A stretch of 10,183 nucleotides of DNA from Pseudomonas phage vB_Pae_U10: the sequence record PP003922.1. One strand, 5' to 3'. The notes below the pieces were generated by a model that searched no databases, had not been told where the DNA came from, and was given only the letters and a program-made list of their open reading frames with translations. Position 1 is the stretch's first letter, and each line of letters begins with the position of its first letter. This document shows, one piece after another, positions 7,856-10,183 of the stretch. A program made the translations under genes and the position numbers.

Positions 7856-8128
7856 TTAGGCGCTGCGGTCCGCGACAGTCACGCTTTCCAACTGATCGAA
7901 CAAGGTACGGCGCTCCTTGCTCGGCATTTCGCGCAGCCGGTCAAACAGCAGCTTGTCCAGTGGGCTGGATGGCCCGAGTAGGGCATGCGAGAAAGTCAGT
8001 TGCATGACGAACCGCTGGCCGCAATGTCCGTTAGTGCACTGGCAATACAGCTTCACGAACTGCCGGGAAATCTCTTCACGCGTTGCTATCCGAGCCTTGC
8101 TGTCGCACTCGGGGCAATAGATTCGCAC
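7856..8128 (-). CDS. ogr: Ogr/Delta-family zinc-finger late-gene transcriptional activator (90 aa)
   Basis: MRIYCPECDSKARIATREEISRQFVKLYCQCTNGHCGQRF matches the C-x2-C...C-x4-C Ogr pattern (P2 Ogr: MFHCPLC...RTSR...YHQCQNVNC). The start is GTG 8128, preceded by AGGAGG (the rc of 8134-8139) with 5-nt spacing. Confidence 0.85.
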   Translation of the reverse strand: MRIYCPECDSKARIATREEISRQFVKLYCQCTNGHCGQRFVMQLTFSHALLGPSSPLDKLLFDRLREMPSKERRTLFDQLESVTVADRSA

Positions 8129-8137
8129 TTCTACCTC

Positions 8138-8202
8138 CTGCTAGAATCGATAAAACACAACATGTAGTTTCGTATTCTACATTCATGTACACATATTGTG
8201 TT
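8138..8202. promoter_or_regulatory. Divergent ogr / capsid promoter-operator region with nested dyads
   Basis: It is an AT-rich stretch. TGT-N13-ACA (8163-8181) is close to the TGT-N12-ACA element of P2 late promoters. AACACAA (8154-8160) and TTGTGTT (8196-8202) form an inverted repeat. CTGCTAGAA (8138-8146) is a half copy of the RHH-associated palindrome and overlaps the ogr SD. Confidence 0.4.
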
Positions 8203-8379
8203 TCCGCTTGAGGCGTCGAGCGCTTGTGCAATGGCCTGAACGAAAAAGCCCCGAGTAACGGGCCGGGACGAGAATCCGGCACGCACTCAGGGCTTGGATG
8301 GCCCCACAAACCCATCGAAAGCGGAGCCGGGCGCAAGTCTAGCAGACCCACACGCAGCATCTCCCCAACCAAGGACCCC

Positions 8380-9408
8380 ATGATGAGCAAATACCTTAGC
8401 GCTCGGGCCTCGACCCAGTATTTCCAACTGCAACGCACCGTGGCCGAGGCGTACCACGTTGACGACGCGGCTCGGACCTTCGCCGTCCAACCGACCCACG
8501 CCCAGGAACTCAATGACCAGATCACCGAGCGCGTGGACTTCCTGGGTCGCATCAACGTGATTCCGGTCAGCGAGATCAAGGGCGAGAAAGTGATGCTCGG
8601 CCTGTCCGGCCCGGCGACCAGCCGCACCGACACCAACGCCAGGGACCGCGAGCCGCGCCACCTGCTGGACCTGAAGAACAACACCTACGAACTCGCGCAC
8701 ACGGAAACCGACGTGGCGCTGTCCTTCGCCACCATCGACGCCTGGGCCAAGTTCCCGGACTTCGTTGACCGCTACCTGACGGCGGTACAGAAACGCATTG
8801 CTCTGGACCGTATCCTGGTCGGCTGGTCGGGCACACACGCCGCTGTCCAGACCGACCCGGCGAAATACCCCCAACTCGAAGACGTGAACAAGGGCTGGCT
8901 CCAGATCGCCCGCGAGCAGATCCCCGAGCAGGTGCTCAAGTCCGAAGACCCGGCTAAGAAAATCACCCTTGGCCCAGGCGGCGACTACGCCAACCTGGAT
9001 GCCCTGGTGCATGACGTGAAGCAGATGATCGACCCGGTAATGCGTGATGAAGGCGACCTGGTGGCGATCATCGGTTCCGACCTGCTGGCAGCGGAGAAGA
9101 GCACGCTGTACGCCGCTCAGGGCCAGAAGCCGACCGAGAAGGAGCGAATCGAAGAGGTCAAGGTCACTGAGACCTATGGCGGCCTGCCCTCGCTGCTGGT
9201 GCCGTTCTTCCCAGTGATGGGCGTCGTCGTTACCAGCCTGGACAACTTGTCGATCTACTACCAGGACAGCAGTTGGCGGCGTCATCTGCTGGAGAACCCC
9301 AAGCGCTCCCGCGCTGAGGACTTCAACGGGCGTAACGAAGGCTACGTGATCGAGCAGCTCGGCAAGTTCGCCGCGCTGGAGGGATCGTCGCTGGAACTGG
9401 TGCGCTGA
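8380..9408 (+). CDS. N: Major capsid protein, P2 gpN family (343 aa)
   Basis: Several blocks match P2 gpN as I remember it: RINVIPVSEIKGEKV (P2: RINIVPVSEMKGEKI), GWLQ, GGDYANLDALV (P2: GGDYASLDALV), LDNLSIYYQDSSWRR (P2: LENLSIYYMDDSHRR) and ENPK. The start is at the double ATG 8380/8383, not the annotated 8224. AAGGA is SD-like. Confidence 0.8.
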   Translation: MMSKYLSARASTQYFQLQRTVAEAYHVDDAARTFAVQPTHAQELNDQITERVDFLGRINVIPVSEIKGEKVMLGLSGPATSRTDTNARDREPRHLLDLKNNTYELAHTETDVALSFATIDAWAKFPDFVDRYLTAVQKRIALDRILVGWSGTHAAVQTDPAKYPQLEDVNKGWLQIAREQIPEQVLKSEDPAKKITLGPGGDYANLDALVHDVKQMIDPVMRDEGDLVAIIGSDLLAAEKSTLYAAQGQKPTEKERIEEVKVTETYGGLPSLLVPFFPVMGVVVTSLDNLSIYYQDSSWRRHLLENPKRSRAEDFNGRNEGYVIEQLGKFAALEGSSLELVR

Positions 9409-9430
9409 GACAGAAACAGGAGACCACCCC

Positions 9431-10183
9431 ATGAGCTTCAAGACCATCGACCGCGGTGAGCTGAATCCCGCGCTGAAAGAGCGCCTGGCGCACTTCGAGA
9501 TGAACCGTCACGCCTACGCCGACGCCCAGCAGCGCTTCAGCGATATCGCCCAGGAAGACACGCGCCTGGCCGCCGAGGCATCCAAGCTGGAGGCCCAGGC
9601 CGAGGCCACCGAACAGGCATGGCGCAAGCGGGCCATTCAGCCGCAAGTGGATCAGACCGAGATCAGCTCGGAGATCGAGCGCGGCGCGGCCCTCAAACGT
9701 CAGGCCCAGGCGCTCCGGGCGACTATCGAGGCGCGTAGCGGCCTGACCGCGCCCGTACTGCTCGAAATGGCTGAGTTACGCGCAGAGCTGCACAAGGAGC
9801 CAGGCGCGATCAATGCGGCCTACTGGCGGGAGATGCTCGACCAGGTGCTGAGCCAAGACGGCTTGCGTGACGCTCTGCTGCAAGCCTTCACCCTGAGTCG
9901 CGATATTTACCTGAGCCAACTGGACAGTCTGGAACCCGTACTGGCGGCCCGTTGCAGCGGTCAGCGGGAGCGGCAGGCGTTCATCGCCCAGGGTATCTGG
10001 GAAGCCTTTGCCGATGAGCTGAAGCGGCTATTTGCGGGGACGGAAAACGGCATGGGTTCGCCTATGCTCGCCAACCTGCCATCGCCTCTGCGCGGCGAAT
10101 TGCTGGCCGAGACGCCGGGCGAGCTGTACCGGCTCCGGCAGGCGTCCGCCAGTCCGCTCAATGGGCGCACCGCACTACGCTGA
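9431..10183 (+). CDS. Alpha-helical coiled-coil protein of the late module, function unknown (250 aa); candidate scaffold / Sid-like size-determination / small-terminase-type protein
   Basis: SD AGGAGA (9418-9423) lies 7 nt before the ATG. The sequence is heptad-like and charged (AAEASKLEAQAEATEQAWRKRAIQ) and sits immediately downstream of the capsid gene, 22 bp after its stop. Its size is similar to P4 Sid (244 aa) and P2 gpM (247 aa), but no convincing motif match was seen by eye. Confidence 0.55.
   Translation: MSFKTIDRGELNPALKERLAHFEMNRHAYADAQQRFSDIAQEDTRLAAEASKLEAQAEATEQAWRKRAIQPQVDQTEISSEIERGAALKRQAQALRATIEARSGLTAPVLLEMAELRAELHKEPGAINAAYWREMLDQVLSQDGLRDALLQAFTLSRDIYLSQLDSLEPVLAARCSGQRERQAFIAQGIWEAFADELKRLFAGTENGMGSPMLANLPSPLRGELLAETPGELYRLRQASASPLNGRTALR

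Follow-up and report, generated by a model that had tools for sequence, protein, structure and literature searches.

A probable P4-like satellite of Pseudomonas aeruginosa with its own gpN-type capsid gene and a neighbouring gene for a candidate Sid-like scaffold

The present work concerns a stretch of 10,183 nucleotides (nt) from the sequence record PP003922.1 (Pseudomonas phage vB_Pae_U10), referred to below as the window. At its right end, a gene for a major capsid protein of the P2 gpN family is located between a gene for an Ogr-like late activator and a gene for a helical protein of 250 amino acids (aa). The left part of the window contains genes for an integrase, an AlpA-like HTH_17 protein, a Toprim_3 primase and a DUF927 helicase, and these Pfam assignments agree with the initial annotation of the window. 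The window probably makes up about 90% of an 11.2-kb P4-like satellite of Pseudomonas aeruginosa which is integrated in the 3' end of a tRNA-Thr(TGT) gene; this degree of confidence applies jointly to the assignment and to the reading of the late module given below.

The late module consists of three genes. The Ogr/Delta zinc-finger late activator (90 aa, positions 7856..8128, minus strand) was detected by Pfam Ogr_Delta (E 1.9e-14, above the cut-off) and phrog_603 (E 1.5e-21). The capsid gene (8380/8383..9408, plus strand, 341-342 aa) matched Pfam Phage_cap_P2 with an E-value of 3.6e-112, TIGR01551, and phrog_70 with an E-value of 2.4e-120. The gene of the 250-aa protein (9431..10183, plus strand), to which a Sid/Psu fold was assigned with AlphaFold2 and Foldseek, follows directly, and its stop codon ends at the last base of the window. 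An Ogr-like, a gpN-type and a 250-aa helical open reading frame (ORF) had been placed here in the initial annotation, and the ORF list, Pfam and AlphaFold2 gave the same result. The proposed gpN identity of the 8380-9408 product was likewise confirmed: the Phage_cap_P2 match spans 325 of the 327 profile positions, and the TIGR01551 score is 306.8 bits at a cut-off of 219.65, as expected of a bona fide member of the family.

The surroundings of the element were determined from assembled genomes. The exact 250-aa protein was indexed in 116 blocks of the assembly collection. From the 24 contigs that were read, three P. aeruginosa loci (L001-L003), each taken with 10 kb of flanking DNA and identical in their gene content, were used as representatives. 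The exact capsid and Ogr-like proteins of this element, which is common in P. aeruginosa, were each present on at least 996 contigs, and the source names of the contigs were Pseudomonas aeruginosa. In L001, whose coordinates are converted to those of the window by subtracting 570, two copies of a 54-nt direct repeat (371-424 and 11603-11656) are separated by 11,232 bp and represent the attachment (att) sites. The left copy (attL) adjoins the integrase gene to the left of the window, and the right copy is the 3' part of tRNA-Thr(TGT), with attR/tRNA-Thr at L001 11603-11678, just past the window's right end. Next to the 250-aa gene there is a gene-free stretch of about 850 bp, and beyond it are tRNA-Thr(TGT) and an MFS/EmrA/OEP host efflux operon; a sugar epimerase gene is located upstream of the integrase, and the element is flanked by host genes on both sides. 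All the ORFs and both att repeats are intact. With the Q, P, O, M, L and sheath proteins of the P2-like P. aeruginosa phage phi3, no tblastn match was obtained in the element or its 10-kb flanks. N is the sole head gene of the element, whereas a P2-like prophage needs full sets of head, packaging and tail genes and a size of some 30 kb or above. The att-bounded size of 11.2 kb and the absence of portal, terminase, scaffold and tail genes indicate that the element is a satellite and not a P2-like prophage. Both the satellite size, predicted earlier to be roughly 10-15 kb as opposed to more than 30 kb, and the predicted lack of a morphogenesis or tail module downstream were in accordance with these results.

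The capsid protein was 80.3% identical, over 98% of its length, to the gpN of five P. aeruginosa P2-like phages including phi3, phita81A/2, BIBS67 and PaBSM-2607-JFK, and all the other gpN proteins among 50,697 phage records were 64% or less identical to it. Among 5.8 billion proteins searched, the closest sequence outside its own 90% cluster was 80% identical. The suggestion that the capsid is a diverged copy of a helper gpN was thereby supported, with the phi3-type gpN as the counterpart. In comparison with phi3 gpN, the nonsynonymous and synonymous divergences (dN and dS) were 0.148 and 0.70, respectively, resulting in a dN/dS ratio of 0.21; the ratio for a helper-helper gpN pair of similar divergence was 0.15. 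Judged from these ratios, the capsid gene is under purifying selection, and its product appears to be a conservative, functional-looking gpN with a period of evolution separate from the known helpers behind it. Neighbour joining placed the gpN proteins of the window and of two related satellites described below (L014 and L019) on long branches, with that of the window as sister to the phi3-type clade; the gpN (probably P0114) of a further satellite, L021, was placed on the tree by inference only. The differences between the capsid and phi3 gpN are evenly spread (14-35% per segment), and a helper-helper pair is much alike in this respect. The sir loop of P2 comprises the gpN residues 183-224 (PMC7552001). 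An enrichment of satellite-specific changes at its equivalent was considered and rejected, as 5 of 35 positions differ there and the values are similar elsewhere and in the helper-helper pair. In or next to the loop, two helper-invariant positions carry satellite-specific changes, A->L (P2 position 213) and F->M (226).

The 250-aa protein had no match to a Pfam, PHROG or NCBIfam family at E <= 0.001 and no match in the 50,697 phage records. By a profile search of 1.84 billion representative proteins, a family of 39 clusters at 50% identity with lengths of about 220-290 aa was obtained. The AlphaFold2 model calculated from a six-sequence alignment had a predicted local distance difference test (pLDDT) value of 78, with low confidence at residues 208-228, and the model from 31 family members reached a pLDDT of 91 and a predicted template modelling score (pTM) of 0.74. 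The predicted fold is all-helical: residues 13-68 and 75-140 form a long hairpin, after which come three helices of lesser length, a non-helical stretch at about 208-228 and a C-terminal helix (229-240). In a Foldseek search against 350,542 PDB chains, P4 Sid (7jw1_E) ranked first with an E-value of 0.032, a probability of 1.00 and template modelling (TM) scores of 0.56/0.59 over 248 columns, and P4 Psu took ranks 2 and 3 with TM scores of 0.20-0.36. Psu and Sid had already been the top two matches of the first, poorer model. The commonest PHROG match among the family members was phrog_6165, the Sid/Psu family (8 of 31 members, best E 2e-4). The E-values of hhalign for the 250-aa family were 0.0065 with Sid, 0.012 with Psu and 0.0038 with the Sid family profile, and 0.49 with the gpM control; a sequence search of the family against the PDB sequences resulted in chance-level matches only. 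P4 Sid is built of a stem, a linker loop (200-219) and the gpN-binding helix alpha6 (PMC7552001), and the predicted stem, non-helical stretch and C-terminal helix of the 250-aa protein run parallel to these parts.

We conclude from the models that the 250-aa protein has a predicted Sid/Psu fold and is most like Sid, which makes it a candidate external capsid scaffold and size determinant. The initial annotation had stated that no scaffold gene was present; this holds for the internal scaffold gpO, but not for external scaffolds, since a Sid/Psu-fold candidate is encoded. Two other identities were rejected. The small terminase gpM, whose gene has the same position and the same length, was not supported by Pfam Phage_term_smal, BLASTP (E 4.5) or hhalign (E 0.49), and a relationship to the gpO scaffold was dismissed after BLASTP against phi3 gpO had given no match.

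The part of the element between the AlpA-like and the replication genes contains RNA features characteristic of P4. The C4 antisense RNA (2273..2360, plus strand; L001 2843-2930) was detected with the full-length Rfam model RF01695 at 80.5 bits (gathering threshold 45, E 6.4e-15), and the a1/b1 target sites of this RNA (2158..2210, plus strand; L001 2728-2780) with RF03163 at 56 bits (gathering threshold 46.7). Within the a1/b1 target region, 36 nt were 81% identical to positions 8652-8687 of P4, which lie upstream of the gene annotated there as cI. The CI immunity factor of P4 belongs to this C4 class of RNAs. It was also found by Rfam in the sister satellites L006, L009 and L020 and was absent from phage phi3. 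An isrK-like Rfam match between the a1/b1 element and the C4 RNA scored 51.3 bits at a gathering threshold of 50. Taken together, the three features at 2158-2360 form a P4/P1-type RNA immunity locus.

The regulatory and replication genes of the left part are all on the plus strand. The tyrosine integrase (1..1374) matched Pfam Phage_integrase (E 1.7e-8) and phrog_1 (E 1.2e-29), and the start chosen by the gene callers, 109, results in a protein of 421 aa. The HTH_17 regulator of the AlpA/excisionase-like type (71 aa, 1887..2102) was assigned by Pfam HTH_17 (E 4.5e-8) and phrog_66 'excisionase and transcriptional regulator' (E 9.8e-10). A second HTH_17 protein of 128 aa (2835..3221) has two such domains (Pfam HTH_17 E 5.8e-14, two matched stretches); the match of this double-HTH ORF to Pfam Phage_AlpA, 20.0 bits, was below the cut-off of 21. 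The Toprim primase (3849..4859; Pfam Toprim_3 E 3.8e-12; phrog_2249 'DNA primase' E 7.3e-57) was 37% identical over 134 aa to the residues 130-262 of P4 alpha (BLASTP, E 3e-17), and on this alignment it is homologous to the primase domain of alpha. The DUF927 replicative helicase (4823..6643, gene callers' start 4856; Pfam DUF927 E 1.7e-68; phrog_1139 E 6.2e-72) showed no similarity to the helicase part of alpha.

Further features of this region were recorded. The 188-aa protein with glycine-rich repeats (3283-3852; phrog_18079 E 3.5e-41) contains a run of G(D/E)xGxAxAG repeats and gives a faint DUF4774/YdhT-like signal, which is also present in its homologues, and it is kept in the sister satellites. 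The double-HTH_17 protein (2835-3221) matches PADLOC mad1 (mads_1) with an E-value of 5.4e-11, probably because of HTH-level similarity alone; in the PADLOC scan of small ORFs this was the sole match and no defence system was detected. Six GGGAAC repeats (7304..7470; repeat families D1, D5 and D7) form a cluster inside an 830-bp stretch (7029-7855) without a called gene. All four AGGGAAC matches of the window, where 1.2 would be expected, fall at 7306-7392. The cluster is a candidate replication origin, possibly of the iteron type, for the Toprim/DUF927 replication proteins.

The Ogr-like protein was 55-62% identical to an ORF of the phi3-type phages; in phi3 itself the identity is 62% and the ORF is located just downstream of the portal gene. 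It has the single-domain form of Ogr and not the doubled form of P4 Delta, and the tblastn similarity to P4 Delta was weak (E 0.014). Just downstream of the ogr-like gene, a perfect 16-bp hairpin (7803..7845; inverted repeat I2, 100% complementary, 11-nt loop) represents a candidate bidirectional terminator, and a terminator-like site with a T-run (7821-7837) overlaps its loop and 3' arm. GC-rich hairpins at 8238-8269 and 7803-7845 flank the ogr-like gene and have the motif AA(A/C)AAAGCCCCG in common; the one at 8247-8269, located upstream of ogr within the capsid-gene leader of about 180 nt, can be read as a terminator on the minus strand. In the divergent ogr/capsid intergenic region, the 13-nt inverted repeat I7 (AAACACAACATGT / ACATATTGTGTTT, 8153..8203) is a candidate late-promoter operator. 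The same dyad, AAACACAAYAT...ATRTTGTGTTT, is found at the equivalent place in the sister satellites L006, L007, L009 and L014; it is absent from the P|O promoter region of phi3, with which the dyad search revealed no motif in common. For TGT/ACA pairs with spacings of N11-N14, neither the satellites as a set nor phi3 showed a consistent site.

Related loci were sought by scanning genome contigs, of which the first scan yielded none and the second four Pseudomonas loci. The related satellites differ in the slot between the Ogr/Delta and Sid-like genes. The gpN capsid gene is present in the window element (P. aeruginosa), in L014 (metagenome), L019 (Pseudomonas sp. ERMR1:02) and L021; in L014 and L019 it is located between the Ogr/Delta and Sid-like genes, and in L021 it is directly upstream of the Sid-like gene, with the Ogr/Delta gene downstream of the latter and convergent. 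Only the N-terminal domain of gpO is encoded in L006 (P. citronellolis), L012/L013, L018 (P. arabinosi) and L020 (P. guariconensis). These protease-only ORFs are intact and 186-206 aa long (L006 9426-9986, L012 5298-5918, L018 9344-9931, L020 9338-9919); Ser107 is kept in them, His48 in three of the four, and they end in a short basic tail in place of the C-terminal scaffolding domain. In L007 and L009/L010, the slot is empty or contains an ORF of 56 aa. The Q, P, M, L and sheath genes were not detected by tblastn in any sister locus. The layout in which ogr is directly divergent from N, described in the initial annotation, was found as such in the window, but the sister satellites with a protease-only gpO or nothing at this place indicate that it is one state of a variable slot. 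A third architecture was noticed in L017 (P. luteola, 5347-8404), where the Sid-like homologue directly follows a fused P4-alpha-like primase-helicase of 750 aa and an Ogr/Delta gene was not detected nearby.

The P. aeruginosa and P. citronellolis elements (L001 and L006) share the same tRNA-Thr site, and the DNA identity of their replication backbones is 95-99%, compared with an average of about 80% for the host flanks. In the late module, where L001 has N and L006 a gpO fragment, the identity is 70-77% or no alignment is possible. The difference between backbone and flanks points to a recent inter-species transfer; the alignments show a backbone that has spread horizontally across species and a helper-facing late module that has been exchanged.

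The likely helpers of the element are the phi3-type Phitrevirus phages, instead of the phiCTX-like phages which had been named as the relevant P2-like relatives. The genome of the Phitrevirus phi3 is 32.6 kb and those of phi3-type phages are 30-33 kb, and the gene order in phi3 and in a related P. aeruginosa prophage (L022/L023) is ogr <- Q <- P | O -> N -> M -> L -> tail. The DNA similarity between the element and phi3 is confined to ogr (69%), N (81%) and a non-coding block of 160 bp (76%), which is located downstream of the 250-aa gene and has a 29-nt core identical to phi3. A 20-nt core CACTT[A/T/G]TCCCCCTCCCGCCG, with at most one mismatch, occurs exactly once per locus in L001, L006, L007, L009, L014, L018, L019, L020 and L021, and there are single occurrences in phi3 and in the 3.5 kb of phita81A/2 that were retrieved. 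In L001 this core (CACTTATCCCCCTCCCGCCG core) has the coordinates 10949-10968, just past the right end of the window. The proteins of the core-carrying satellites are just 30-70% identical to each other. Since a core common to divergent satellites and helper-type phages is expected of a terminase recognition/cleavage site, the 20-nt core is regarded as a candidate cohesive-end (cos) site. The assignment of the block as an att arm was rejected, because the integrase has no significant match in phi3 and the tRNA-like attP of phi3 lies elsewhere, at L004 2854-2927, by its own integrase. An assignment as cos by similarity was not obtained either: alignments of the block with the P4 cos junction and phiCTX cosL were at the level of shuffled sequences, and an ungapped identity of 11/19 to the P2 and phiCTX cohesive ends is a by-eye count and not significant. 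In L021 (1830-4416), the cos-like core falls within a called pyocin-S/colicin DNase ORF that neighbours a DUF7660 gene. The phi3 record also contains a group II intron (Rfam D1-D4-7 and Intron_gpII, annotated as 'reverse transcriptase') at L004 413-2848, and it adjoins the tRNA-like sequence 2854-2927, which overlaps the integrase 3' end and is presumably attP.

By analogy with P2/P4, the following course of events would be expected. A phi3-type P2-like helper (Phitrevirus) would be induced in the cell or would infect it, the helper Ogr and the Ogr/Delta homologue of the satellite would cross-activate the late promoters, and the satellite DNA would replicate. The late cassette would yield the satellite gpN together with the Sid-like scaffold, and both would assemble with the portal and protease/scaffold of the helper to small procapsids. 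The helper terminase would package the satellite DNA via the shared cos core, and helper tails would be attached. The capsids of P4 and P2 have T=4 and T=7 symmetry, respectively, and the ratio of 11.2 kb to 30-33 kb, one-third as for P4:P2, suggests small T=4-like capsids. The most likely role of the capsid gene would be to supply a subunit matched to the satellite's own Sid-like protein, by which the size redirection would become independent of the gpN allele of the helper. If true, a Sid-matched gpN would counter the 'sir'-type escape of helpers and widen the helper range. From the comparisons above we infer the identity of the helper, the cos function, the small capsids and the reason for carrying gpN; the satellite may build its own capsids or bias their assembly.

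The best-supported reading, which has a better than even probability, is that of a phi3-type satellite with a captured helper-type capsid gene, maintained by selection and located next to a Sid homologue. Several observations weigh against it. In hhalign, the 250-aa family shows a weak similarity to Sid (E 0.004-0.007, probability <10%), the Foldseek E-value is just 0.032, and spurious fold matches occur readily among coiled-coil proteins. The changes of the capsid are not enriched at the sir loop and give no direct support to the Sid-matching idea. The P2-type Ogr box TGT-N12-ACA has no match in the window, and the late intergenic region of the satellite is not similar to the P|O promoter region of phi3. 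The alignment of the shared block with the cos sites of P2, P4 and phiCTX was no better than that of shuffled sequences, and P4 epsilon had no tblastn match to the element at E <= 1, although an analogue may be present.

In a first alternative, the satellite assignment is right and the capsid gene is a passenger, acquired by recombination with the late operon of a helper and of no essential use; the element would employ the helper gpN and its own Sid-like protein in the manner of P4. The late module is exchanged by recombination, relatives with the same backbone exist without gpN (L007 and L009/L010 with nothing or a 56-aa ORF, L006 with the gpO fragment), and the even spread of the capsid differences leaves no sir-loop signature. 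However, a useless 1-kb gene should decay in an 11-kb element for which a small capsid has to suffice, and the ORF is intact at a dN/dS of 0.21 and a dS of 0.70; furthermore, the capsid is at least 20% diverged from the known donors and is present on about 1000 contigs or more. The retention of gpN in four divergent satellites and of an intact protease-only gpO in four others points to selection at the slot, and a mere passenger is considered unlikely. In a second alternative, the satellite gpN, alone or with the 250-aa protein, would serve mainly against the helper or other P2-like phages; by co-assembly with helper gpN as a poison subunit or a size-shifter it would block productive helper capsids, chiefly to the effect of interference or host defence. 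Interference with helpers by the remodelling of capsids is known from satellites: SaPIbov5 Ccm, a homologue of the helper capsid, redirects assembly (PMC8569155), P4 Sid suppresses the P2 burst (PMC7552001), and the satellite capsid is on a long branch relative to the helper capsids. Such a role is nevertheless given a rather small probability, as interference and self-packaging are not exclusive in known systems and the protein is built like a gpN of full length, still with the N-terminal part which is cleaved off by gpO in P2, and with no truncation or obvious loss of conserved positions, although nothing in the data separates it from the reading as a captured and Sid-matched capsid gene.

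The function of the 250-aa protein could also be a different one. As an internal scaffold it would replace the C-terminus of gpO and form, together with the capsid, a minimal shell-building pair; as a Psu-like protein it would be a decoration or anti-Rho factor. The protease-only gpO of four sister satellites is immediately followed by the 250-aa homologue, like a split gpO; coiled-coil folds are common to internal scaffolds, and Psu is among the top fold matches. Over the full length, however, the best fold match is Sid (TM 0.56-0.59 compared with 0.20-0.36 for Psu), the order of stem, non-helical stretch 208-228 and C-terminal helix mirrors the stem, linker loop and alpha6 of Sid (PMC7552001), and similarity to gpO or gpM of phi3 was not detected, which leaves both functions quite improbable. 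The least credible explanation, to which hardly any weight is given, is a decayed remnant of a P2-like prophage which became fused to an integrative replicon and is no longer mobile. The layout of the window could arise from a phi3-type genome, in which ogr stands behind Q and P and faces O-N, by deletion of Q, P and O. In contrast, the att repeats and ORFs of the element are intact, it has its own immunity RNA and replication genes, and the 250-aa gene was never found in phage records. At least nine loci from several Pseudomonas species repeat the design of Ogr, slot, Sid-like gene and cos core, and the backbone identity of 95-99% across two species with flanks of about 80% indicates a recent horizontal transfer.

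For the satellite with a captured capsid gene, a further-reaching interpretation may be put forward tentatively, although the chances are somewhat against it: the element would belong to the first P4-type lineage outside Enterobacterales and be an intermediate between P4-like and capsid-forming satellites, in which the slot, the first position of the late operon, would be the site of an arms race and repeatedly capture helper head genes (a whole gpN here, a protease-only gpO in the sister elements) that co-evolve with the Sid homologue, enabling the satellite to form its own small shells whatever the capsid allele of the helper, to overcome 'sir'-type escape and to use a broader range of helpers. 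The presence of a predicted Sid-fold protein in a Pseudomonas satellite family and the clear capture of helper head genes by satellites would be of interest in their own right. The close relatives with an empty slot, a gpO-protease or gpN form a natural series, by which the limits of helper escape from size redirection and the move of satellites to capsid autonomy become testable. The prophage and satellite content of P. aeruginosa affects phage therapy and gene transfer, and finders tuned to enterobacterial P4 would probably miss this element family or call it a defective prophage.

P4/P2 is the textbook example of capsid piracy, where a satellite without a capsid gene reshapes the helper gpN by means of Sid. 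The element resembles the P4-like satellites of helper P2 in its size of about 11 kb, one third of the helper genome, and in having an integrase, an AlpA-like HTH_17 regulator and a C4/CI RNA. The primase domain homologous to that of alpha, the Ogr/Delta activator, the Sid/Psu-fold late protein and a short non-coding site in common with a P2-like phage are further likenesses to P4. Structural genes are lacking in P4, whereas a full gpN is encoded by the element; its helicase is of the DUF927 and not of the alpha type, and it has a single Sid/Psu paralogue, whose likeness to Sid is at the level of the fold only, and no epsilon homologue was found. P4-like satellites have been described as enterobacterial (PMC8628076; PMC13586616), whereas the host of the element is Pseudomonas. 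No P4-type satellite in Pseudomonas and none carrying gpN was found in the literature covered, with subscription journals mostly outside the search. In the phi3-type phages (Phitrevirus, Peduoviridae), which are also the likely source of the genes taken up, Q, P, O, N, M, L, tail and lysis genes are present, and both the C4 RNA and a Sid-like gene are missing.

The head module of the phage-inducible chromosomal islands that form capsids (cfPICIs) comprises portal, protease or scaffold, head-tail connectors and small terminase, and only the tails are taken from the helper. Compared with this whole head module, the element has a single head gene and a Sid-like gene. A cfPICI has been described as a satellite which supplies its own capsid protein and obtains the other parts of the virion from its helper (PMC10085698), and a satellite-encoded homologue of the helper capsid is known in principle from both SaPIbov5 Ccm (PMC8569155) and the cfPICIs (PMC10085698). 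SaPIbov5, one of the cos SaPIs, is similar to the element in that a helper capsid homologue is encoded, and it uses the helper terminase via a cos site (PMC8569155), as is proposed for the element. It differs in belonging to an unrelated Staphylococcus lineage with siphovirus helpers, and its Ccm is a diverged, specialised protein which changes the shape and size of the capsid and acts without a Sid-like external cage. The element, in contrast, encodes a full and conservative gpN, 80% identical to that of the helper, which is paired with a protein of predicted Sid fold.

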